Notes under the pieces: generated by a model
Told to the model about the DNA's origin: nothing
Database searches by the model: none
Seen by the model: the letters and a program-made list of their open reading frames with translations, nothing else
Assembly (NCBI GenBank): GCA_944387405.1
Contig: CALXET010000002.1
Coordinates: 129,316-193,315, forward strand
Direction of reading: 5' to 3'
Length of the DNA stretch: 64,000 bases
Source of the DNA: an uncultured Clostridia bacterium
Lineage (GTDB): Bacteria; Bacillota; Clostridia; TANB77; CAG-508
Translations under genes and position numbers: made by a program
Part shown: positions 1 to 46,689 of the stretch, piece after piece
Layout of the letters: every line of letters starts with the position of its first letter
How positions within the stretch are numbered: position 1 is the first letter of the stretch

Positions 1-170
1 AAAAAGGAAATTACTATGCACACACACTAAATAACACTGTTGTTGCTCCACCTCGTATGTTAATCGCATTCTTAGAAAATCACTATCAAGAAGATGGTAC
101 AATTACAATTCCTGAAGTTTTATGGCCATATATGGGTGGAACAAAAGAATTAAAACCTAAAAAGAAATAA
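1..170 (+). CDS. serS: seryl-tRNA synthetase, C-terminal end (partial, continues upstream of window)
   Basis: Frame from nt 3 reads ...[39 protein letters not shown]...K*, matching the conserved SerRS C-terminus; stop TAA at 168-170. Confidence 0.7.
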
Positions 171-249
171 AAATAATTCAAATTTAAACTTAAATAAAAA
201 TAGCTATAACCACATTATATTTAAAATATTATAGTTGTAGTAATACAAA

Positions 250-290
250 AATGAATCTATAAGTATATTTATAGATTCATTTTTTATTTA
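250..290 (+). terminator. intrinsic terminator after serS
   Basis: 11-bp perfect stem aatgaatctat/atagattcatt with 9-nt loop, followed by tttttatttattt. Confidence 0.6.
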
Positions 291-396
291 TTTCATAGCT
301 TTTTTCTTATACAACAATTTTAGATTTTTAAAAATTATAAATAAAAAAATAAACCCCTTTGCAGGGGAAAGACTCTAAGTCTTTTTTAGTCGAGTT

Positions 397-651
397 CTAG
401 CTAGGAAGCCCCTCAAAAACGTATGCCCCATCGGCATTTTTCCTAAGAGGACTTAGCTGGCTCGAGTGCGAATCTATAAGATATGCAAACATCTGCCCAT
501 CTCTTTGGAAAACCGCACTTCTTTCAGCATCTGCCTTAGTGAAGTTTACGATGTTAAACTGATACCCCCTACCAAGATATGAAAAGCCAAACGTTTTGAG
601 ATTCTCGATAGCCTTCCTAAGTTCTTGGTCTTCCCTATAAACCTTCATCAT
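397..651 (-). CDS. hypothetical 84-aa protein on higher-GC cassette A
   Basis: ORF with start ATGATG and RBS agaaagg; GC visibly higher than flanks; a TGTTATAAT -10 lies about 100 nt upstream (revcomp of ~735-745); hairpins cccctgcaaagggg and aagacttagagtctt lie just downstream (345-395). Confidence 0.5.
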   Translation of the reverse strand: MMKVYREDQELRKAIENLKTFGFSYLGRGYQFNIVNFTKADAERSAVFQRDGQMFAYLIDSHSSQLSPLRKNADGAYVFEGLPS

Positions 652-2339: not shown

Positions 2340-2510
2340 TTATTTTTTCTTAATCATTTTTAATGCTTTAGGTCTCTCTACAGTAATTATATGTTCACAT
2401 CCTAAACATTTAAATTTAAAATCAACACCTACTCTTATAATTTGCCATCTATTACTTCCACATGGATGTTTTTTCTTCATTTCTACTATATCACCTATAT
2501 TATACTCCAT
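2340..2510 (-). CDS. DUF951-family small zinc-ribbon-like protein
   Basis: MEYNIGDIVEMKKKHPCGSNRWQIIRVGVDFKFKCLGCEH matches DUF951 (GDIVxMKKxHPCG...CxGC). RBS aaaggtgg precedes ATG at 2510. The ORF-track extension to 2564 reads through the terminator hairpin of the upstream cassette and is probably not translated. Confidence 0.6.
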   Translation of the reverse strand: MEYNIGDIVEMKKKHPCGSNRWQIIRVGVDFKFKCLGCEHIITVERPKALKMIKKK

Positions 2511-2520
2511 ATCTACCACC

Positions 2521-2561
2521 TTTATAAAAAAACATCTGGCACACGCTTTACATGTGCCAGA
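2521..2561 (-). terminator. intrinsic terminator of cassette C, embedded in the apparent 5' extension of the DUF951 ORF
   Basis: Minus-strand hairpin tctggcacatgtaaagcgtgtgccaga followed by tgtttttttat. Confidence 0.6.
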
Positions 2562-2572
2562 CATTTCACAGC

Positions 2573-2956
2573 TTACACCTTACTAAAGAATTTCTTTTTC
2601 ACTGTAATAGTGATTTTCCTTGTTCTCATTTTCACAGGTGCTGATGCCATGATCTCTTTCTCGTCTACGAGGCTCCCCATTTTGTCACCTGACAAAACAA
2701 CACTCGCAAACTTAAGATGCAAGGGCATCTCTTCGGTACAGGTCTTTGTGTAGACTCTTACCTTGTAGGTTTTTCGAAGAATGTCAAGCTCATCATCAAA
2801 CCGTCCATCAGTAAAAGCCTCAAGCAGCTTAACTGCAATGTCTTTTTCAAGCTGCCCTACCCAATCTTCCACTTCAAGCGAAATATACTGCGAATTATAT
2901 AAGTCATCCTTCCGGAACAACTCCGCAGAAAAAACGCTCATAGGTACACTGTTCAT
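2573..2956 (-). CDS. hypothetical 127-aa protein on higher-GC cassette C
   Basis: Higher-GC ORF; SD aaggaggg upstream; TGTGCTATAAT extended -10 on the minus strand at ~2985-2995. Confidence 0.5.
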   Translation of the reverse strand: MNSVPMSVFSAELFRKDDLYNSQYISLEVEDWVGQLEKDIAVKLLEAFTDGRFDDELDILRKTYKVRVYTKTCTEEMPLHLKFASVVLSGDKMGSLVDEKEIMASAPVKMRTRKITITVKKKFFSKV

Positions 2957-3025
2957 TGGATAAAAACCCTCCTTATTAATTAAGAATAGACTTAATTATA
3001 GCACATTTATTTAATTTATTCAACT

Positions 3026-4669
3026 TTACTTACTTGCTCTTTTTAAAACAGATTCCTTGCCAAGTACTTTTAATATTTCATATAAATCAGGAGTATTTGC
3101 CCTACCTGTTATTTTTACTCTAATTACTGTACTTATATCTCCAACATGACCTTTGTATGCATCTGGATTTGCTTTATATTCTTTAACTTCCCTCGCATAT
3201 CCTAGCTCTTCTGATAAATCCTTCATCTTATTAAACCATGTTTGTTTGTCATCATTTTCATCATAATATTTATCAAAATAAGTAGTTACTATCTTCTTAA
3301 TCTCATCTTCGTCAGTTACCTTTTGATACTCATATTCTATGTTTGAAGTTAAAAATCTATCATCAAACATATATATAATTGAATCTTTAACATCAGACCA
3401 TTTAGCAATATCTTTTCTAGGTTTTACATTTCCTCTTTCAATTCCAAAAATTTTTAAAGCATATTCTTTATCTCTATTTAATAATTCATATAAATCTTTA
3501 TCATATGTACTTGCCCAATTTAAAACATCTTCTAAAACTTTTTCAGCTGAATAAGTAGAAATTACTGTTTTTGATACATCTAATAATTTTACCATATCAA
3601 ATAAAGCTCCACTTACTCCCATTTTCTTAATATCAAAATTAAAATCATCTACTGATTTATCTTTATTTCCTTTTTTCCAAGCCTCAAAATTAGAATTTGC
3701 AATATTCATTAAATATTCAATAACTGCTTCTTTTGGAATTCCTTCTTCTCTATAATAACTAACTGCAGCCTCTGGATCTTTTCTTTTACTTAGTTTTCTC
3801 TTATTTCCATCTTCTTCTTTCATTATAGGAGCAATATGTGCATATTTAGGCGCTTTAAATCCTAACATATAAAATAATTGTAAGTGAAGTGGTACTGAAG
3901 CTACCCATTCATCTGCTCTTATTACTAAATTAGTTCTCATTAAATGATCATCTACTGCATGAGCAAAATGATATGTTGGAAGTCCATCTGATTTAATAAT
4001 TACTATATCTTGATCATTTTCTGGAAACTCTATATTACCTTTTATTAAATCTTTATGCTTAATTTTCTTATCTGGATTTCCTGGTGATTTTAATCTTACT
4101 ATATAACTATCACCATTTTTTATTTTTTCTATAGCCATATCTACAGGCATATTTCTACATCTTGTCCATTTTCCATAATATCCTGTTCTTTGTCTTGCTT
4201 TTGTTTGATTTTCTCTTATTTCATTTAAATCTTCTGCAGAACAAAAACATGGATATGCTAGTCCTTTTTCAAGTAAACTTTTAGCATATGCTTGATATAT
4301 TTCTTTTCTTTTACTTTGAATATATGGTCCATAATTTCCATTATCTGTTCCATCTTCATTTAAAGATTCATCTGGTGATAAATCATATTCTTTTAAAGAA
4401 GTTAATATTTCAGATACACCATTTTCTATTTCTCTTTTTTGATCTGTATCTTCTATTCTTACAAAAAATACACCATCAGTTTGTTTTGCCATTTTTTTAG
4501 CAACTAAACTTTGATATAAACCTCCTATATGTACAAATCCTGTTGGGCTTGGTGCAAATCTAGTAACTATAGCACCTTCTTTTAAATTTCTTTCTGGATA
4601 TTTCTCTTCATAATAAGATACATCCTTTGCATCTGGAAATATTAAATCTGCTAATTCTTTATATCCCAT
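3026..4669 (-). CDS. gltX: glutamyl-tRNA synthetase (class I, with insertion domain)
   Basis: HIGH-type motif FAPSPTGFVHIGG, VRIEDTDQKR, KLSKR (KMSKS-type). Start MGYKELADLIF at 4669 with RBS agagaggtag; the ORF-track start at 4744 lacks an RBS. Confidence 0.8.
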   Translation of the reverse strand: MGYKELADLIFPDAKDVSYYEEKYPERNLKEGAIVTRFAPSPTGFVHIGGLYQSLVAKKMAKQTDGVFFVRIEDTDQKREIENGVSEILTSLKEYDLSPDESLNEDGTDNGNYGPYIQSKRKEIYQAYAKSLLEKGLAYPCFCSAEDLNEIRENQTKARQRTGYYGKWTRCRNMPVDMAIEKIKNGDSYIVRLKSPGNPDKKIKHKDLIKGNIEFPENDQDIVIIKSDGLPTYHFAHAVDDHLMRTNLVIRADEWVASVPLHLQLFYMLGFKAPKYAHIAPIMKEEDGNKRKLSKRKDPEAAVSYYREEGIPKEAVIEYLMNIANSNFEAWKKGNKDKSVDDFNFDIKKMGVSGALFDMVKLLDVSKTVISTYSAEKVLEDVLNWASTYDKDLYELLNRDKEYALKIFGIERGNVKPRKDIAKWSDVKDSIIYMFDDRFLTSNIEYEYQKVTDEDEIKKIVTTYFDKYYDENDDKQTWFNKMKDLSEELGYAREVKEYKANPDAYKGHVGDISTVIRVKITGRANTPDLYEILKVLGKESVLKRASK

Positions 4670-4771
4670 ATAATCTACCTCTCTATTCTTCTTTTTATTT
4701 ATAAAATTCAGCTCAATTATACCAAAGCTTCCTTTATTTTTCAATATTTATACGCAAAAGAAGATTAAGAA

Positions 4772-5446
4772 CTAGAAAATATTTTCTAGTTCTTTTAAAT
4801 CTTTTATAACTATATAATCTTTTGCATCTTCTGCTTGTTTTAAATCTCGCGTACCATCTATATCTAAAAGAATTGCTTTCATACCTACTCTATTTGCTCC
4901 AGATATATCTGTACGCTTGTCATCACCAATCATTATACATTCATCTTTGGTTGCTCCAATTTCTTTTAACAAATTATCAAAAGCTTCTTTAAAAGGTTTT
5001 GCACCAATTTCATCTGATCCAAATACTCTTATAAAATATTTATCTAAAGAAAGATTTTTTATTCTCTCTTTTTGTATTCTAGAGTAAAAGTTAGAGAAAA
5101 CATATAGGTTATAACCTTTATTTATTAAATATTCTAATGTCTCTTTTGTAACTAGAGCTTCTCTACAAAACTTGCTTCCTATAACTTCAATTATTTCTTC
5201 CATAAACTCTACCTGAAAATCAGTATCTAATTCTTTATTTACAAAGTCAGTCATATCTTTTAAGTTATAATATATATTTTCTCTTGTAAAATCACAATCA
5301 TAATTTCCAATAGACCTGTATATATCATTATAAAGACTTTCATCATAACCATATTTTTTTAAAACTTTTTTATATTCTAGTTTATCTTCTTCTTCATTTT
5401 TTACAATAGTATTATCTACATCAAATATTATATTTTTTATTTTCAT
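4772..5446 (-). CDS. HAD-superfamily hydrolase
   Basis: Motif I IIFDVDNTIV plus MIGDDKRTDISGA (motif IV-like). Confidence 0.7.
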   Translation of the reverse strand: MKIKNIIFDVDNTIVKNEEEDKLEYKKVLKKYGYDESLYNDIYRSIGNYDCDFTRENIYYNLKDMTDFVNKELDTDFQVEFMEEIIEVIGSKFCREALVTKETLEYLINKGYNLYVFSNFYSRIQKERIKNLSLDKYFIRVFGSDEIGAKPFKEAFDNLLKEIGATKDECIMIGDDKRTDISGANRVGMKAILLDIDGTRDLKQAEDAKDYIVIKDLKELENIF

Positions 5447-9012: not shown

Positions 9013-9480
9013 TTGGATAGACCTGTTTATATACGGAAACTAACCACTGCTGATGCTAAAATTTACAAAAACATTTCTTATGGAGAATCTCTCCATAGAT
9101 ATGTTTCTTTTATGGAAGCAAAAAGCATATCAGAAGCAGAAAGGATCATATCCTTCAACACCTGCCTGTTTTCTACTATGTATGGAATCTTTCGAGCTAG
9201 TGATAACAAGCTAGTTGGAGCTTTAATTACCTCATGGTATGAACCAGACAGTGAGATCACGGTTCACTACTTCATAGGAGAATATTACAGAAGGAAACAC
9301 TATGCTTACGAGTCCCTAATTGTTCTCTCTCGGCTCGTAAAGCAGAAGTACCCCGAAGTAAAGACTCTCTTATTCGAAGTCAGAAAAACTAACAAGGCAA
9401 GTATCGCTCTGCAGAAAGCCTTAGGATCTGAACTTGTGAAGGAAAATGATAAAATTTACTTCTACTATTTATCCGTATAA
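9013..9480 (+). CDS. GNAT-family N-acetyltransferase on higher-GC cassette D (TTG start)
   Basis: Strong SD aaggaggt; TGTGCTATAAT extended -10 at ~8965-8975 with TTGTTT -35 17 nt upstream; GNAT-like C-terminal motif KASIALQKALGSELV; higher GC than flanks. Confidence 0.55.
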   Translation: MDRPVYIRKLTTADAKIYKNISYGESLHRYVSFMEAKSISEAERIISFNTCLFSTMYGIFRASDNKLVGALITSWYEPDSEITVHYFIGEYYRRKHYAYESLIVLSRLVKQKYPEVKTLLFEVRKTNKASIALQKALGSELVKENDKIYFYYLSV

Positions 9481-9482
9481 GC

Positions 9483-9528
9483 CTAGCCCAAGGTTCCCCT
9501 AAAAAGGAGCCCGGGCTTTTCTTTTGTC
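9483..9528 (+). terminator. putative terminator of cassette D
   Basis: GC-rich palindromic segment agcccaagg...gagcccgggc followed by ttttcttttg. Confidence 0.4.
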
Positions 9529-9667
9529 TAATTATTAATATTTTTGTCTTACTATTTTTCTTGAATTTTATATTTTATCATTTTATACTTTTATCATAAC
9601 AATTTTGAATTTATAATTTTATTATTGCTTCTTTCTTGTTTAAAAATACAATAAAAGGAGTGATATT

Positions 9668-9982
9668 ATGAATTTTGATAATATTTTAGATAGTTTTAAT
9701 ATTGATGATTTTTCAAATGATTTACACAATTTCTTAAATAATATTACTGAAGAGGAACCTGTTTTATATACTTTAGATAGAGTTGAAGGAAATTTTGGTG
9801 TACTAGAAAATAGAGATACTGGAAAAATGTCAGATGTTCCTATTGAAAAATTACCAGAAGATCTAAAAGATGGTGATATTTTTAGATATTTTAATGGTGT
9901 TTTCGAAAAAGATATAGAAGCTTATAGTAAAACTAAAGAAAGAATAGATAGTTTAAGAGAAAATTTAAAAACAAATACTTAA
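9668..9982 (+). CDS. DUF3006-family small protein (native composition)
   Basis: YTLDRVEGNFGVLENRDTGKMSDVPIEKLPEDLKDGDIF pattern; RBS aaaaggag. Confidence 0.5.
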   Translation: MNFDNILDSFNIDDFSNDLHNFLNNITEEEPVLYTLDRVEGNFGVLENRDTGKMSDVPIEKLPEDLKDGDIFRYFNGVFEKDIEAYSKTKERIDSLRENLKTNT

Positions 9983-10060
9983 AATAGCAAAATTTGAATT
10001 TTTATGTTAACTGTGGTATTATTAATATATATACCCTATTTAGGAAGGAGGTATCAAGAA

Positions 10061-10828
10061 ATGGCAGGACACAAATTGTACCTTAAGTATGTACAACCTG
10101 TTGTTTCTGGCATTGATGGGGTATTCTCCCTTCTTGAGGGAATTGATGTCCTTAAGTGCTTTGTCCCTGATCTTCGGGAGCACTATAATGACTGCCCAAT
10201 AACATCTTTGCCAACCGTCACAGAAGAGGATCTTAAAAAACTGCTCAAGCCTAACAGCTTTGAGTATGTTCTAAAGACCTCAAAGGTGTTGGAAATCGAG
10301 TCGCCTAAGCTGGTGATTTCTGTATACACGATCTTCGAAATCGGAGGTTACGTTGCAGTAATCAAGTCTGGACGCAAGGTAAGCGCGAAAGTGCTGGGGT
10401 ACTACAACACCAGGGAGTTCAAGTCTGGTACCCACGCACTCTTCGATTTGCTGAAGAAACGTCACATGATTTCAGCTGAGTGCGAAGAGATCCAACCCGA
10501 TCGTCTGGACGTTCTCGATTTTGACGAGCTTGCAGATTGGCTATCTGGCTTCTTGGAGCCGGGTGTCACTCTCACGGTCAAGCACCGGCTCCCAACTTAC
10601 GAAGAGCTCGATGGAAAGCATACCACTTGGTATAACGATGGGAGTGCGCTTTCTCCTATCTACATCGAGATCGTAAACGTGAGTTGTGAGTGCTTCGTCA
10701 TATACGCCATGGTAAACTACGAAAACAAAGACGAGTACAGCTCCCTGGCTAAGAGCCATGGGTTCCAAGCTTACGAATCTGCGTTCTGTGATTCCGGCGT
10801 ATTTGAGGAACTGTTCTACACGGACTAG
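10061..10828 (+). CDS. hypothetical 255-aa protein on strongly higher-GC (~50%) cassette E
   Basis: SD aggaaggaggt before ATG 10061 (MAGHKLYLKY...). The ORF-track start at 10004 is upstream of the RBS. No recognisable motifs. Followed by a GC-rich terminator. Confidence 0.6.
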   Translation: MAGHKLYLKYVQPVVSGIDGVFSLLEGIDVLKCFVPDLREHYNDCPITSLPTVTEEDLKKLLKPNSFEYVLKTSKVLEIESPKLVISVYTIFEIGGYVAVIKSGRKVSAKVLGYYNTREFKSGTHALFDLLKKRHMISAECEEIQPDRLDVLDFDELADWLSGFLEPGVTLTVKHRLPTYEELDGKHTTWYNDGSALSPIYIEIVNVSCECFVIYAMVNYENKDEYSSLAKSHGFQAYESAFCDSGVFEELFYTD

Positions 10829-22559: not shown

Positions 22560-22765
22560 TTTAATATAAAAACATGCCCCACATTAGCCGTTAATGTAAA
22601 GAATTTTTAATGGACCTGTACTCACACAGGTGGGTGCCCTCCTGAATACTCCTGGGTTTCTTATATAAATATAAGCATACACGCCATACTCAGAGACCGA
22701 AGCTCCCTTCTCCAAACTTGTAGGTTCTAAAAACTCTGTCCTCACGCACCATGCAGGGATTGATA
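22560..22765 (-). ncRNA. candidate structured small RNA (about 200 nt; 6S-like size; identity unresolved)
   Basis: Only GC-richer non-coding stretch in a 515-nt ORF-free gap. Several stems form with G-U pairs only when read on the minus strand: long-range CCCUGCAUG...CAUGUGGGG closing helix about 185 nt apart, hairpin CCUGU-GUGAGU-ACAGG, C(UUCG)G tetraloop. A possible -10 (gataat) lies upstream and a terminator downstream. Confidence 0.4.
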
Positions 22766-30476: not shown

Positions 30477-31556
30477 TTATCTGTCACATCCACCTTGTGT
30501 CCTTAATGATGAACTAAACTTATAAATTTCTCTACATAGTGGATGATCTCTTTTTCCTCCTGGAACATTTATACTTTCTAAATCTTCATATATATTATAT
30601 AAAGTAATTCCATATGCTCTTAATATTTCTTCATCTATTTCTTTAAATGCTGGGCATGGTAAAACTGTACCATCATATTTTATGTCCAATTTCTCTGTTC
30701 CAGCTGTACAACTATGAGAAACATCGCCAAGAAGTGGTATACCAACTCTTATTCGCCCTTTATAATTTTTTCTTGCCTCTTGAAATATTTCTGAAAACTC
30801 CCTCATCTCATCATCAGAAAGCATTAATATATCTTTATTTTGTTTTCCTCTTCCTTGAGGCACAAAATTTAAAAGACTAATATTTTCTATCCCTGCTATA
30901 TCTAAACATTCTAGTATATCCTTAAATTCTCTATAATTTGATTTCATTGGTATAAAATGCACATCTACTTTAAGTCCGTTCATTCTTGCTCTAATCATTG
31001 AAGTTATTACATCTGTCATAAGAGATCTTGTTCCCATAAGCATATTATATGTCTCTTCTTCTGCAGCTTGATAATCAAAAACTATTTTATCTAAACCTAA
31101 AGCTTTTAATTTTTGAAATTCTTCGTTAGAAATTGCAGAAAAATCAGTTCCTTGTATCATTCTTTCATAAAACTTTCTTATTCCTTCTTTTGATCTTTCA
31201 TTCCAAGGTTCATATCTCTCTATTTCTTCAATACTAGAACTACACTCTTTTATTAATGCAGATATTTCTTCTTCTGATAGTTTTTCACTTCTTTTTATTC
31301 CACTTGTAAATATAACTGTTCTAATATTATTTTCTTTGCAAAACCTTACCATTTCAAATAAGTCTGGATGTAAAAATGGCTCTCCTCCTGATATAGATAT
31401 TTCACCAATACCACCATTATCTAAAAAATGCTCCACTGTTTTCTTAAATACATCTATTGGAATAATGTTTTTAGCATTAATTGATGAATTTGAAGAACAA
31501 AATTTGCAATTATTAGGACATGTTTGTATTACTTCAAAACATAAATCTTTTAACAT
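30477..31556 (-). CDS. radical SAM enzyme with Cys-rich C-terminal (SPASM/twitch-like) extension
   Basis: CPNNCKFC (CxxxCxxC), GGEPFLHPD; C-terminal cysteines SHSCTAG...LPCPAF...HPLCREI...GGCDR. Confidence 0.65.
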   Translation of the reverse strand: MLKDLCFEVIQTCPNNCKFCSSNSSINAKNIIPIDVFKKTVEHFLDNGGIGEISISGGEPFLHPDLFEMVRFCKENNIRTVIFTSGIKRSEKLSEEEISALIKECSSSIEEIERYEPWNERSKEGIRKFYERMIQGTDFSAISNEEFQKLKALGLDKIVFDYQAAEEETYNMLMGTRSLMTDVITSMIRARMNGLKVDVHFIPMKSNYREFKDILECLDIAGIENISLLNFVPQGRGKQNKDILMLSDDEMREFSEIFQEARKNYKGRIRVGIPLLGDVSHSCTAGTEKLDIKYDGTVLPCPAFKEIDEEILRAYGITLYNIYEDLESINVPGGKRDHPLCREIYKFSSSLRTQGGCDR

Positions 31557-31747
31557 AATATACCTTCTTATTAATAAATTAGATAAATTATACTACGATT
31601 TCTCTTATTCTTCAATAATTTATTGTGTTTTTATGTAAACTGTGTTATAATTTTGTTTGTCCTGTATGACAGCTATTATATTTCTAAATGAGCAAGACCG
31701 ACTTAGAAGTACAATAGTTTATTAACTTTTAGAAAGGGGATGTTTTT

Positions 31748-33160
31748 ATGCAGTACAGAGACATTTTGCAGCAGGAGATCGATAAACGGTTAACCGAAGC
31801 TGCAGCATTTTCACTTTGCCCACTTGATGGGCGCTATGTAGCAATCGCCAAAGCGCTTGCTCCGTATCTTTCCGATTGGGCACTTCAGTACCATCGGGTA
31901 AACGTAGAAGTCGAGTGGTTCATTGCAATGACCGAACTGGTTGAATCATCTGATTTTCTTATGGATTTTGATCCTAATATGACGATGATTATTCGCAGTA
32001 TTGCAGAAGAGTTTACCATCGATGACTACTACGAAATCAAAGACATCGAAAAGGTAACAAACCACGATGTCAAGGCGGTGGAAGTATTTCTGCAAAGAAG
32101 GTTCAAGGTCATCGGTCTTGAGAAGTTTGTAAGCTTTATTCACTTTGGATGTACATCCGAAGACATTAACAATTTGGCTTACGGGCTCATGATTAAGTCG
32201 GCTTTGAATGATGTCATTATTCCGAAAATGGCTGAACTTGCTGATAAGATCAATGACTTTTCAACATCATTTGCAAGAGTCCCGATGCTCGCGCATACAC
32301 ACGGACAAAAAGCCTCTCCGACAACAGTTGGAAAAGAATTTGCTGTATACCGTGAGCGCCTCTACTCAGTAATCGATGATTTATCATATATTCCTATTAC
32401 TGGAAAATTTAACGGCGCAACCGGAAATCATTCAGCTGTTTCAGTGGCTTTCCCTTGCGAAGATTGGCCGGCAATTGCAGAGCAGTTCGTAACAGATTAT
32501 ATGGGGCTTGAATTCAAGCTGGTTACTACACAGATTGAACCTCATGATTATATCTGTGAGATTTGTGATGCTATCCGTCACTACAACAACATTCTCATCG
32601 ACTTTGATCTGGATATGTGGCTTTATATCAGTATGGACTACTTAAAACAGATCCCGGTTAAGGGTGAAGTTGGTAGTTCTACTATGCCGCATAAGGTAAA
32701 TCCGATTAAGTTCGAAAACTCGGAAGCATCTGTGTGGTTCTCAAATGCGCTGCTGATTGCATTGTCTGAAAAGCTTCCGCGCTCTCGTATGCAGAGAGAT
32801 CTCTCTGACTCTGCTACACAGAGAAATATCGGAATCGCTTTTGGATATGCACTGCAGGCAATAAATCAGACCATATCCGGGCTCGAAAAAATCGATGTCA
32901 ATACAGATGTAATCTCTGAAGATCTCGATAGTAGCTGGGAAGTCCTTGCAGAACCGATTCAGACCGTTATGCGCAAATACGGTATTTCCGATGCCTATGA
33001 TAGGCTTAAACAGCTTACTCGTGGCAAAGAGATTACTCGTGAAGACATTCAGGAATTTATCAAGACTCTTGATTTTATTTCCGAAGACGATCGAGAAGAT
33101 CTCTTGAAGTTGAAACCGTCAGATTATACGGGCTACGCTGTAGAAATTACAGAAAATTAA
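31748..33160 (+). CDS. purB: adenylosuccinate lyase, E. coli-type (class II) PurB, on higher-GC (~46%) cassette G
   Basis: LCPLDGRY, TNHDVKAVE, HFGCTSEDINN, GSSTMPHKVNP signature, about 456-aa type. TGTGTTATAAT extended -10 at ~31641; SD agaaagggga. Confidence 0.85.
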   Translation: MQYRDILQQEIDKRLTEAAAFSLCPLDGRYVAIAKALAPYLSDWALQYHRVNVEVEWFIAMTELVESSDFLMDFDPNMTMIIRSIAEEFTIDDYYEIKDIEKVTNHDVKAVEVFLQRRFKVIGLEKFVSFIHFGCTSEDINNLAYGLMIKSALNDVIIPKMAELADKINDFSTSFARVPMLAHTHGQKASPTTVGKEFAVYRERLYSVIDDLSYIPITGKFNGATGNHSAVSVAFPCEDWPAIAEQFVTDYMGLEFKLVTTQIEPHDYICEICDAIRHYNNILIDFDLDMWLYISMDYLKQIPVKGEVGSSTMPHKVNPIKFENSEASVWFSNALLIALSEKLPRSRMQRDLSDSATQRNIGIAFGYALQAINQTISGLEKIDVNTDVISEDLDSSWEVLAEPIQTVMRKYGISDAYDRLKQLTRGKEITREDIQEFIKTLDFISEDDREDLLKLKPSDYTGYAVEITEN

Positions 33161-33198
33161 CATTTTTCCTACAAAACTGAATAGCAACAAAAACTAAA

Positions 33199-33241
33199 GG
33201 GCTCTGGCACATTACGTGTCAGGGCCCTCCCCTTTTATTTT
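33199..33241 (+). terminator. intrinsic terminator of cassette G (abuts convergent recN stop)
   Basis: 12-bp stem gggctctggcac/gtgtcagggccc (two G-U pairs only in the plus-sense RNA), then tccccttttatttt. Confidence 0.7.
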
Positions 33242-34865
33242 ATGCTACTCTATCTTTTCTTAATTCTTTTGCATGCTTCATAGAAATCTCTGTAACTTCT
33301 CCTGTTGAAATTCTAGCTATTTCTTTTATTACTTCATCTTCATCTAATAATTTGATAGATGTTCTTGTTTTATCATTATCAACACTTTTTGAAATAAAAT
33401 AATTATAATCAGCTTTAGCAACTATAGTAGCTAAATGAGTAACACATATTACCTGATGTTTTTTTGAAATTTCTCTAATTTTATAACCAACTCTTTTTGC
33501 CGCTACTCCGCTTATTCCTGTATCAATCTCATCAAATATTAATACTGGAACTTTATCTACATCAGATAGTACTTTCTTTATGCCAAGCATAATTCTTGAC
33601 ATCTCTCCACCAGATGCAATTTTTACAAGTGGTTTAGCTTCTTCTCCAACATTAGTTACAATTAAGAATTCTACTTTATTTAATCCATTACTATTAAACT
33701 TTTCTTCATCAGAAATACTAACTTCAAATTTAGCATTTTTCATTTCCATATCATATAATTCTAAATTAATTCTTTCAGCTAGTTCTTTTGATACTTTTCT
33801 TCTAAGTGTATTCATAGTTAAAGATAGTTCTCTTAATTTTTCTTCTATCTCTATTTTATCTTTTTTTAGTTTATTTATATATTCATCTAAATTTTCTATA
33901 TCAAATAATTCTTTTTCTATTTTTTCTCTATACTTTAGTATTTCTAGAATATTGTTTCCATATTTTCTTTTCAAATCTTGAATTAAATCTAATCTTCTCT
34001 CTAAATTTTGTTTTTCTTCTTCATCATACTCAATATCATCTTTATATGAATCTAAGTCTCTTTCAGTCTCTTCTAATTCATAATATGAGCTTCTTATTCT
34101 AGAAGCTAAGTCTAAATATTTATCATCTATATTTGAAATTTTGTCTATTGATTTTAATACATCGCTTAAGCTACTTAAAATATTTTCACTTAATCCATAA
34201 TAAGCTTCGTTTAAATTTGATGATATTTTTTCAGAATTATTTATTATTCTAAGTTTGCTTTCAACTTCATCTTCTTCATTTTCTTTTAATTCAGCTTCAT
34301 CAATTTCATTTAGTTGATATCTAAGCAAATCTATTTTTCTTTGCTTTTCCATATCGTCTCCATAATTTTGTTTAAGCTCTGATTTTACTTTCAAATACAT
34401 GTCATATTGTTTTTTATATTCATCTTTTATTCCTTTAATTTCAGTTCCTATATAATCATCTAAAAACTCAATATGACTCTTTGGATCTAATATTGTTTGA
34501 TTATCATTTTGTCCATGAATATCTATTATATTTTGCATAAAATCTTTAAGTTCATTAACAGTAACTAATCTTCCGTTTATCTTACATAAATTTCTACCAG
34601 CAATATTTACTTCTCTTGAAACAATAATATTTTCCTCTTCACCTTGTTCATTTTTTATATAAATAGAAGCCTCTACATATGAATTTTTTTCGCCTCTTCT
34701 AATCATTTCTTTTGAAAATCTACCACCTGCTAATATTTGAAGAGAATCTATTATTAAAGTCTTTCCAGCTCCTGTTTCTCCTGTTAAAACATTAAAGCCT
34801 TCATGTAAGTTTACTGACATATCATCTATTATACCTATATTTTTTATATGTAATGTATCTATCAT
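33240..34865 (-). CDS. recN: DNA repair protein RecN
   Basis: IKNIGIID...LTGETGAGKT Walker A, coiled coil, C-terminal DEIDTGISG. Start MIDTLHIKN. Confidence 0.85.
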   Translation of the reverse strand: MIDTLHIKNIGIIDDMSVNLHEGFNVLTGETGAGKTLIIDSLQILAGGRFSKEMIRRGEKNSYVEASIYIKNEQGEEENIIVSREVNIAGRNLCKINGRLVTVNELKDFMQNIIDIHGQNDNQTILDPKSHIEFLDDYIGTEIKGIKDEYKKQYDMYLKVKSELKQNYGDDMEKQRKIDLLRYQLNEIDEAELKENEEDEVESKLRIINNSEKISSNLNEAYYGLSENILSSLSDVLKSIDKISNIDDKYLDLASRIRSSYYELEETERDLDSYKDDIEYDEEEKQNLERRLDLIQDLKRKYGNNILEILKYREKIEKELFDIENLDEYINKLKKDKIEIEEKLRELSLTMNTLRRKVSKELAERINLELYDMEMKNAKFEVSISDEEKFNSNGLNKVEFLIVTNVGEEAKPLVKIASGGEMSRIMLGIKKVLSDVDKVPVLIFDEIDTGISGVAAKRVGYKIREISKKHQVICVTHLATIVAKADYNYFISKSVDNDKTRTSIKLLDEDEVIKEIARISTGEVTEISMKHAKELRKDRVA

Positions 34866-34945
34866 ACATATCTTCCTTTCGCACATTTGTTTGTATAGAT
34901 ATAATACTAATATTTTTAAAAGTTGTCAATACATTTGTTCGCTTT

Positions 34946-36437: not shown

Positions 36438-36782
36438 TCATTTAGCAATTTTCAAAGATGCTGCATGCGGTAATAAACCGAGCTTAGCAAAGAACAATGA
36501 CAGCTCAACATATGTGTAATCCTGATGACCTTTAATGGCCAAAATCTTCACATATCCATCACTTTCATTTACAAGTTCATGACTCTCTCCTTTTGGACAG
36601 ATATAGACATTTTTCTTGTCGAGCCATATCCATACCTCCCATTGGTCGTTATGATCATGCATTGTAATTGTTGTGTACGGTGCTACGCTCAGATATTGAA
36701 TCTCGTCAATCTCTGTCAAGACTATCTTCCGCACTTCATCGCCTTTGATAAATTTTTCTGGGAGCTTTACTTCTGGTATCAT
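36438..36782 (-). CDS. cupin-domain small protein on higher-GC cassette H
   Basis: HDHNDQWEVWIWL...ICPKGESHEL cupin-like His motifs; SD taggagga; TATAAT on minus strand at ~36815; higher GC than flanks. Confidence 0.55.
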   Translation of the reverse strand: MIPEVKLPEKFIKGDEVRKIVLTEIDEIQYLSVAPYTTITMHDHNDQWEVWIWLDKKNVYICPKGESHELVNESDGYVKILAIKGHQDYTYVELSLFFAKLGLLPHAASLKIAK

Positions 36783-46563: not shown

Positions 46564-46627
46564 TTTTGAAAAACAATAAAAAAAGATGAAAAAGGTTATC
46601 TTTTTCATCTAAAGTGGTGACCCCTAC
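46564..46627. repeat. 64-bp direct repeat, copy B (overlaps the tRNA-Glu 3' end)
   Basis: See copy A. Confidence 0.85.
46574..46609 (-). terminator. intrinsic terminator after tRNA-Glu
   Basis: Stem gatgaaaaag/ctttttcatc with loop gttatc (minus-sense GAUGAAAAAG-AUAACC-UUUUUCAUC) followed by UUUUUUUAUUG. Confidence 0.65.
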
Positions 46628-46689
46628 GGGAATCGAACCCATGATTCCACCTTGAGAGGGTGGCGTCTTAACCGCTTGACCAAGGGGCC
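46615..46689 (-). tRNA. tRNA-Glu (anticodon CUC)
   Basis: Minus-sense GGCCCCUUGGUCAAGCGGUUAAGACGCCACCCUCUCAAGGUGGAAUCAUGGGUUCGAUUCCCGUAGGGGUCACCA: 7-bp acceptor stem, D loop, anticodon loop CUCUCAA, T-loop GGUUCGAUUCC, encoded CCA; near-identical to Bacillus tRNA-Glu. Confidence 0.85.

Follow-up and report, generated by a model that had tools for sequence, protein, structure and literature searches.

A foreign-looking purB gene with a candidate leader RNA, inherited at one locus in AT-rich Clostridia

Introduction

How can a gene that has all the appearance of a fresh import occupy the same place in the chromosomes of several species? This question is raised by purB, the gene for adenylosuccinate lyase (ASL), in a stretch of 64,000 nucleotides, hereinafter the window, of contig CALXET010000002.1 from an uncultured Clostridia bacterium (positions 129,316 to 193,315). 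The guanine plus cytosine (GC) content of the window is 26.9%, and that of the purB coding sequence (CDS; positions 31748-33160, plus strand, 470 amino acids (aa)) is 42.0%, with fractions of 0.51, 0.33 and 0.42 at the first, second and third codon positions (GC1, GC2 and GC3, the latter more precisely 0.416). The GC3 of all of the approximately 50 native open reading frames (ORFs) of at least 120 aa in the window is between 0.085 and 0.2, so that the contrast between purB and its host is far beyond chance. A preliminary description of this DNA had noted the contrast, which stands, along with a GC content of 46%, which does not, and had considered, among other possibilities, xenologous displacement; a recent acquisition is contradicted by the nesting of PurB wholly among proteins of low-GC relatives and by the synteny of the gene in four species. 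The interpretation that we favor, at a probability of roughly 55%, is that purB is an intact, autonomous unit inherited at one locus, with a mid-GC CDS that is held at its composition by a force specific to this CDS and with a leader that acts post-transcriptionally.

Throughout, loci of relatives are denoted by L and a number. L081, L082, L083 and the window represent four species of one genus, with L082 as the outgroup to the trio formed by the other three, and L091-L094 are independent assemblies of the window's own species.

An intact adenylosuccinate lyase of the E. coli type

The product of purB was originally described as an E. coli-type enzyme, and profile searches agree. The protein scores 596.7 bits against the whole-protein hidden Markov model NF006764/PRK09285 of NCBIfam (curated cutoff 446), also passes TIGR00928 (purB; 344.5 versus a cutoff of 326.2), and contains the Pfam domains Lyase_1 (PF00206; residues 77-324, E = 3.7e-42) and ASL_C (PF08328; residues 346-461, the full length of the profile, E = 1.2e-44). 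Full-length matches to adenylosuccinate lyases in PDB (7t24, 3bhg and 2pts) have E-values of 1e-126 to 1e-128. The TSED (T136-S137-E138-D139), HTHGQ (H183-T184-H185-G186-Q187) and GSSTMPHKVNP (S310-S311-T312-M313-P314-H315-K316, N318-P319) motifs are invariant in our alignment A4 and align with those of 7t24; TSED, the histidine of HTHGQ and the SSxMPxKxNP loop presumably play catalytic roles. Judging from these features, purB is an intact, functional-looking adenylosuccinate lyase gene whose product is predicted, from its family, to convert both 5-aminoimidazole-4-(N-succinylcarboxamide) ribonucleotide (SAICAR) to 5-aminoimidazole-4-carboxamide ribonucleotide (AICAR) and adenylosuccinate to adenosine monophosphate (AMP).

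PurB of the window adds a new member to a known family. It shares the two-domain architecture, the motifs and an above-cutoff, full-length match with the E. coli-type enzymes (PDB 2PTS/2PTR, 3BHG, 7T24) but is only ~46-47% identical to proteobacterial enzymes and belongs to a separate clade that is so far known only from very AT-rich, Clostridia-like gut bacteria; furthermore, the conserved leader of this purB is missing from 79 purB loci of other phyla. The gene is monocistronic and, as had been noticed, convergent to recN (33240 to 34865 or 34886, minus strand) and outside any pur operon: no other pur gene is present within the 64 kb of the window, and the neighbors of purB encode a radical-SAM protein, RecN and Ham1. 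The two alternative ends given for recN correspond to the longest ORF (33240-34886, 548 aa) and to the gene calls in all related assemblies, which start 7 codons downstream (541 aa, ending at 34865).

A discrete unit inherited at one locus

The gene order radical-SAM (minus), purB (plus), recN (minus), Ham1 (minus) is common to the window, L081, L082, L083 and L091-L094. The exact PurB protein of the window is encoded in several independent assemblies of the same species (L091-L094), and the identical junctions in these assemblies rule out an assembly chimera. DNA alignments show that the promoter, the leader and the Shine-Dalgarno (SD) region are kept up to the start codon and that similarity returns with the stop codon; only the purB CDS combines high divergence with high GC, and the adjoining flanks, as far as the start codon on one side and the stop codon on the other, are 83-100% identical. 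Between distant loci, the autonomous cassette that had been postulated is visible as such: in blastn comparisons among L106, L087, L097 and L109, which have unrelated flanks, the sole shared DNA is a segment of 1.6-1.76 kb, with 84-98% identity, that extends from the -35 element to just past the terminator.

Phylogenetic analysis of PurB (neighbor-joining trees with 200 bootstraps) recovers the proteins of the four species of the genus as a monophyletic group (99.5%) with L082 in the basal position (99.5%), as in the trees of the flanking genes. All PurB proteins from AT-rich hosts form a single clade (100%) that is a sister to a Negativicute sequence and then to sequences from Bacteroidota, the candidate phyla radiation (CPR) and Proteobacteria; the nearest PurB proteins of other phyla are 44-49% identical to that of the window, those of Proteobacteria 46-47%. 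In a comparison with the 8000 proteins, out of 5.8 billion, that ranked highest by shared words, the closest homologs after those of the window's own species are the proteins of L081, L083 and L082 (72%, 71% and 68% identity, respectively), followed by a plateau at or below 61%, the best value outside the genus. A scan of genome contigs was dominated by the generic motif MPHKVNPI and returned mostly Proteobacteria. Viewed together with the synteny, the inheritance of the unit at this one locus goes back to the common ancestor of four or more species, and the unit is not a recent import.

The sharp borders of the unit in unrelated contexts and its conserved 3' hairpin resemble those of mobile cassettes, such as integron cassettes, the cargo of transposons or integrative and conjugative elements. 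Unlike these, however, the unit carries its own promoter, and Pfam searches detected no integrase, transposase or conjugation genes within 10 kb on either side of the examined loci; the flanking direct and inverted repeats are short chance matches alone, and the nearest tRNA gene is 13 kb away from purB. The 3' hairpin with its T-run reads as a terminator rather than an integron recombination site, although no search was aimed specifically at attC motifs, and no recombinase is encoded within the same 10 kb. Carriage by a plasmid, phage or virus was rejected as well, given that nothing close is found on such replicons (no match above 47% identity on plasmids, phages or viral contigs) and that viral contigs lack the leader pattern described below.

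The preliminary description had envisaged that the unit may complement a native purB, and a second ASL gene of native composition beside the leader-bearing unit is indeed seen in two relatives. L111 contains two ASL genes in tandem, at 2367-3740 and 3953-5389, of which L111a is leaderless with a GC3 of 0.12 and L111b is leader-bearing with a GC3 of 0.57; in L084, the second ASL gene (L084b; 1-566, minus strand) is leaderless with a GC3 of 0.10, and the leader-bearing copy has a GC3 of 0.32. L111a is the sister of the leader-bearing L113 (GC3 0.385; 99.5% bootstrap), so that an AT-adapted leaderless form sits inside the leader-bearing clade. Given this coexistence with leaderless, AT-adapted paralogs in some relatives, the unit would be best viewed as an old, separately regulated xenolog or paralog.

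The composition of purB is not a decaying relic

The compositional anomaly is not limited to the window. Every relative for which DNA was obtained belongs to a host of 26-36% GC, the hosts being characterized solely by the composition and content of their contigs. In the L081, L082, L083 and L091-L094 loci, the GC3 of purB is 0.39-0.56, compared to 0.09-0.15 in the flanking genes, and the same holds for 17 of the 17 leader-bearing lineages with DNA (0.23-0.57 in purB, 0.07-0.2 in the flanks). Codon usage follows suit: purB prefers CAG over CAA, avoids ATA and TTA, and uses CCG and CTN; the share of NAC codons is 26-63%, compared to 6-15% in native genes, and ATA accounts for 5% of the isoleucine codons in the purB of the window (3-13% in a set of seven lineages) compared to 53% in native genes. 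The native mRNAs of the host consist of 41-46% A. We considered strand-specific avoidance of A as the driver of the purB composition, but this is not distinguishable, since purB of ordinary 40% GC genomes has the same A3/T3 pattern.

Is this composition what is left of an ancient donor, or is it being renewed? Four-fold degenerate sites, scored as S (G or C) or W (A or T), address this question. In the native flanking genes, the GC content of these sites is 0.03-0.09, and the S/W states of L082 are uncorrelated with those of the other three species (phi from -0.03 to 0.05), so that the native synonymous sites are saturated. In purB, the 4-fold GC content is 0.32-0.50 in all four species. If these G and C residues were inherited, sites that are S in two species would be expected to carry the same base, but the same-base fraction at shared G/C sites is 0.39-0.62 between L082 and the trio and about 0.5-0.6 between subclades, where 0.5 is expected by chance; the G/C positions of purB thus appear to have been made anew in each lineage. 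Neutral decay from the ancestor of the genus would require, as estimated from the phi values, an ancestral 4-fold GC content greater than 1. We conclude that the composition of purB is not a decaying relic: it is either maintained or repeatedly re-imported from an unseen source. Because the mid-GC composition is kept through complete synonymous turnover, a force specific to the CDS would be holding purB off the AT equilibrium of the host, most likely selection on mRNA or codon composition that is tied to the expression of the unit.

Polarization of changes does not discriminate between these explanations at shallow depth, where mutation input dominates. Deeper polarization, whether based on parsimony or on unanimity among the other lineages, was rejected because native control genes show a spurious excess of AT-to-GC changes (61:8 and 29:3), a bias of the method that is caused by saturation.

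The relationship between purB and its flanks also has to be viewed in the light of saturation. The nonsynonymous distance (dN) within the trio is 0.18-0.21 for PurB and 0.03-0.045 for RecN. The synonymous distance (dS) of the NG86 method seemed to give the purB alleles 5-10 times the age of the flanks; this was rejected, given that dS is badly underestimated at a GC3 of ~0.1, which exaggerates the contrast, and that a composition-aware synonymous distance is 1.6-2.2 for PurB and 1.0-1.2 for RecN, a gap of ~1.5 times. The flanks are mosaics in which blocks of 98-100% nucleotide identity are embedded in DNA of 78-90% identity and end at the edges of the purB CDS (window positions 30901-31400 compared with L081, and 33201-33300 and 33601-33800 compared with L083). 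These blocks indicate recent recombination between species. Homologous recombination would keep homogenizing the AT-rich flanks and would be stopped at the purB CDS, where synonymous sites with four accessible states could have become too dissimilar for recombination; the dN may be raised further by weaker constraint on a purB copy that is possibly redundant.

Several other genes in these genomes deserve mention with respect to composition. Four further ORFs of the window look foreign against a host GC3 of ~0.11: 2573-2956 (minus strand; GC3 0.46) and 10004-10828 (plus strand; 0.54), both without a Pfam match, 9112-9480 (plus strand; 0.43), which encodes a GNAT acetyltransferase, and 36438-36782 (minus strand; 0.38), also without a Pfam match. 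The last of these is also GC-rich in L081 and, like purB, has diverged beyond the flanks (81% aa identity, dN 0.13); L082 has an unrelated AT-rich gene at this position. In L084, a purC gene (SAICAR synthase; 9528-10376, minus strand) that is convergent to purB and adjoins Ham1 has a GC3 of 0.33, with 0.12 in the flanks, and lacks the leader motif. A solitary tRNA-Glu gene with the anticodon CUC (46615-46689, minus strand) reads GAG, which accounts for 18% of the native glutamate codons.

A candidate purB-specific leader RNA

The second distinctive component of the unit is its 5' leader RNA (31659-31747, plus strand; ~89 nt). Within it, a hairpin of ~15 bp (31671-31719, plus strand) consists of a 5' arm (31671-31687, AGCUAUUAUAUUUCUAA), a variable loop (31688-31702) and a 3' arm (31703-31719, UUAGAAGUACAAUAGUU), and is followed by the SD region UUAGAAAGGGG (31729-31739, plus strand), which is located 8 nt upstream of the ATG and is invariant in the 14 leaders of alignment A3. 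The general layout is AACUAUU-N-AUUUCUAA, variable loop, UAGGAAG-N-CAAUAGUU, AAAUAAC-NN-UUAGAAAGGGG. The 5' arm contains an anti-SD-like UUUCUAA and, we presume, resembles the 3' end of Firmicute 16S rRNA; the 3' arm is SD-like. The sequence shows complementarity of the 5' arm (AUUUCUAA) not only to the 3' arm but also to the SD region (UUAGAAAGG). An out-of-frame ATG (31740-31742) within the conserved block abuts the SD region with zero spacing; it is also present in L081 and L083, there with a stop codon 2-3 codons further on, and is probably not used.

The hairpin of the window has a minimum free energy of -10.8 kcal/mol (z = -3.3), and the same helix folds in L087, L113 and L117, with -6 to -11 kcal/mol over the four lineages. 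Across the 14 leaders, pairing is realized in 91% of the cells, compared to 37-57% when the partner is slid; three pairs are altered on both sides, a count that is reached in 51 of 500 shuffles. L082 carries a double insertion, U and G, one base in each arm, and in L117 G.U replaces an A-U pair of the others; a G.U replacement is also seen in the window.

The leader is conserved far beyond the genus. It is 83-99% identical between the window and L081 or L083 and is kept up to the start codon even in L082; the same promoter block and leader precede purB genes whose products are 57-61% identical to PurB of the window (L084, L087, L089 and L001), and altogether the leader is present in 17 lineages, with PurB identity to the window down to 47-60%. 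A covariance model, R1, built from the 14 leaders of A3 matches the window at 31664-31750 (80.8 bits, E = 3e-14), yields 54-91 bits across loci with a single match per locus that is always located directly upstream of purB, and recovers L116 and L117, which were absent from its training set (76 and 81 bits, respectively). R1 detected no match in the 79 purB loci of Proteobacteria, Bacteroidota, Negativicutes and CPR, nor upstream of purC, purA or the AT-adapted ASL paralogs. A scan of metagenome contigs with an exact pattern retrieved 16 loci, 14 of which are purB leaders; the pattern was not found in viral contigs.

A purine riboswitch-like fold, which had been suggested for the leader, is not borne out. 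Rfam has no match to the leader at the gathering threshold, and even at E values up to 10 there are only chance matches (a small nucleolar RNA, a microRNA and a cyanobacterial small RNA), which rules out a purine or other riboswitch of a described family. The leader shares with the purine (RF00167), ZTP, PRPP, xanthine and guanine-II riboswitches the position upstream of a purine-pathway gene in a Firmicute, but consists of one long, variable-loop hairpin instead of a three-way junction, and is not matched by their covariance models. In our literature search, neither a purB leader nor the compositional pattern seen here turned up. The leader is, as far as can be judged from its sequence, a candidate purB-specific cis-regulatory RNA outside Rfam.

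Leaders that sequester the SD, or stabilize the 5' end of the mRNA, are known in Firmicutes and include RNA thermometers, the expression platforms of translational riboswitches, the STAB-SD of cryIIIA and the 5' hairpins of the ermC type. The purB leader resembles these in the location of the hairpin near the 5' end, the segment complementary to the SD and the competing SD-like segment, and the host encodes RNase J1. It differs in that the variable loop contains no recognizable aptamer, that no Rfam family matches and that the arms are conserved rather than covarying. With one arm mimicking the 3' end of 16S rRNA and the other mimicking an SD, the hairpin might hold the anti-SD-like arm off the real SD (UUAGAAAGGGG), and the complementarity between the SD and the 5' arm is compatible with a switching role. 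Post-transcriptional control could thus involve either an SD-sequestration switch worked by some factor or a 5' stabilizer of the mRNA in a host with RNase J1.

In three loci, L001 (~9926-10000), L111 (~3888-3952) and L113 (~4144-4208), what comes after the conserved SD is ATG-TAA, a 3-codon ORF (MKH*) or a sequence lacking any start codon, and the purB genes of L001, L111b and L113 have a second SD of their own 40-60 nt downstream of the conserved one. In these loci, the conserved SD is not that of purB and precedes a start-stop or 3-codon mini-ORF, an arrangement that is STAB-SD-like and suggests that the conserved leader SD can act without initiating purB translation. Apart from the leader, a full-length 6S RNA gene (RF00013, 77.1 bits) was identified in the window at 22572-22762 (minus strand).

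Promoter and terminator of the unit

The private promoter that had been proposed for purB is supported by conservation. The putative promoter (31623-31651, plus strand) consists of a weak -35 element, TTGTGT (31623-31628), a 17-nt spacer and an extended -10 element, TGTTATAAT (31643-31651); the originally noted TGTGTTATAAT (31641-31651) reads as TG-N-TATAAT. Because the -35 element is weak, the promoter is omitted by a consensus promoter scan. The block TTATGTAAA-N3-TG-N-TATAAT is kept in L081, L082 and L083 as well as in the distant loci L084, L087, L089, L096, L103 and L001. The distance from the end of the -10 element to the ATG is 96 nt, and transcription probably starts near G31659, which would yield a leader of ~88-90 nt instead of the 85 nt given previously.

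The predicted intrinsic terminator (33198-33238, plus strand), located between purB and the convergent recN, comprises a 13-bp stem with a 5-nt loop (33198-33228; 8 of the 13 pairs are G-C) that is followed by CCCCTTTTAT, with CCCCUUUUAUUUU as the tail. The preliminary description had it that the G-U pairs of the stem fit transcription in the plus sense, and so they do: the two G.T pairs can wobble in the plus sense only, and both are Watson-Crick pairs in L081. The terminator is kept in L081 and L083, and a related one (GGAGAGCCG..CGGCUCUUUCCC) is located downstream of purB in L084, L087, L089, L001 and L117.

Discussion

Under the model of Lawrence and Ochman, a horizontally acquired gene undergoes amelioration toward the composition of its new host. 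At face value, purB is such a gene: its GC content of 42% against 27% and GC3 of 0.42 against ~0.11, its atypical codon usage, its solitary position away from the pathway operon, with a private promoter and terminator, the AT bias of its newest substitutions, and the other GC-rich ORFs of the window, which show that this lineage takes up foreign genes, all would fit a single recent transfer from a mid-GC or E. coli-like donor, with displacement of the resident gene and amelioration still to come. Synteny and tree already contradict such a transfer, however, which we consider very unlikely. The anomaly is retained at a single locus by four species in which native synonymous sites have reached saturation, and also across a clade with up to ~50% protein divergence; its G/C positions have turned over and are not common by descent, so that simple decay would start from the impossible ancestral value given above; and no donor lineage is visible among the 8000 best candidates, with the proteobacterial proteins at 46-47% identity and the clade a sister of Negativicutes and Bacteroidota and not a branch within Proteobacteria. 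The anomaly thus resembles the signature of horizontal gene transfer but fails the tests that define it, as relatives carry the gene, no donor clade is visible, mobility features are missing and the G/C sites are not relics. Least likely of all, in our estimation, is translational selection for C-ending or otherwise optimal codons in a very highly expressed purB. The high share of NAC codons, the dispersed T-to-C third-position differences in NNY codons within the L096/L097/L099 lineage, the strong SD and the stabiliser-like leader are all in line with such selection, but no codon bias of this kind is visible in the host, where dnaK (GC3 0.085), dnaJ (0.089), gltX and the RNase J1 gene all lie within 0.085-0.10; G-ending codons (CAG, AAG, CTG and CCG), GC1 and GC2 are raised in purB as well; AT-adapted ASL paralogs work in related hosts; and the polarization that hinted at an AT-to-GC excess proved biased on native controls. 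The preliminary description had named, as a refutation of its reading, nesting of PurB among close low-GC relatives together with an origin of the composition in expression-level bias; the nesting is observed, but expression bias fails as the explanation because the chaperone genes are as AT-rich as the rest.

The main rival to the reading that we favor is recurrent replacement in situ, in which purB is an exchanged cassette that recombines via the conserved leader and terminator or via the flanking genes, and the mid-GC composition is the signature of an unsampled reservoir of donors; we consider this rather unlikely. Several observations speak for it, and some of them (the codon usage, the divergence from the flanks and the discordant topology) also weigh against maintenance of the composition by a CDS-specific force. 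The codon usage of purB and its raised GC1 and GC2 are those of an ordinary gene of a 40-45% GC genome, and residence in a mid-GC donor would produce such codon usage without any selection. Divergence and high GC stop at the start and stop codons; the identity between the window and L081 is 91-100% for the flanking proteins, 82% for a hypothetical 239-aa protein and 72% for PurB; the dN of PurB within the trio exceeds that of RecN 4-6 times and is far above the 0-0.04 of RecN, Ham1 and the hypothetical protein hyp210 within the genus; and the PurB tree groups L081 with L083 (97%), in conflict with the radical-SAM tree, which groups the window with L081. Excess divergence and discordant topology together leave room for allele replacement. 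The unit is the sole DNA, with up to 98% identity, common to loci with unrelated flanks, and the neighboring GC-rich, cupin-like gene is equally discordant (81% aa identity). Other points also weigh against the reading that we favor: the youngest reliably polarized third-position changes in purB (at ~1.5% divergence) include 16 GC-to-AT and 6 AT-to-GC changes, so that purB receives the AT-biased mutation input of the host; the trees are all neighbor-joining and not maximum likelihood trees; and both arms of the leader hairpin are conserved in sequence, hence the weak support for the helix from covariation. Replacement, on its part, lacks a visible source: no mid-GC carrier was found, with all relatives for which DNA is available in 26-36% GC hosts and the 14 true leader matches of the metagenome scan on AT-rich contigs or on contigs too short to reveal the host; 61% is the highest identity that a PurB from outside the genus reaches in the top candidates from 5.8 billion proteins; and nothing close was found on plasmids, phages or viral contigs. 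Furthermore, the alleles of the four species form one clade in which the outgroup species branches first, the loci contain neither mobility genes nor flanking repeats, the composition-aware synonymous divergence of purB exceeds that of the flanks ~1.5 times and not 5-10 times, and the sharp edges would also arise if the diverged CDS blocks the recombination that homogenizes the flanks, where blocks of 100% identity are visible.

Maintenance by a CDS-specific force can be taken one step further. The mid-GC, A-poor CDS might be an adaptation, functionally coupled to the new leader RNA and actively upheld in a purB copy with regulation of its own, a conjecture that we hold to be unlikely. Such a composition could lower the dependence of AMP-forming enzyme expression on the ATP pool or, alternatively, on tRNAs and their modifications that fail when purines run short; loss of the leader, as in L111a and L084b, would then release the constraint and let the gene drift to the composition of the host.

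Implications

Atypical composition is routinely taken as evidence of recent horizontal transfer. The purB unit described here keeps its foreign look at one locus through the turnover of its synonymous sites, and does so across an entire clade. If this composition is maintained, a gene-specific force holds a single CDS 30 percentage points of GC3 off the equilibrium of the genome, which would be a new kind of constraint; if it is re-imported, there must be a hidden reservoir, along with precise swapping of the coding sequence between conserved regulatory arms. In addition, the analysis yields a candidate purB-specific leader RNA outside Rfam, with a calibrated model and 17 lineages that carry it, whose function is directly testable. 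The persistent composition and the purB-specific leader are the parts of this system that appear most worth following up.

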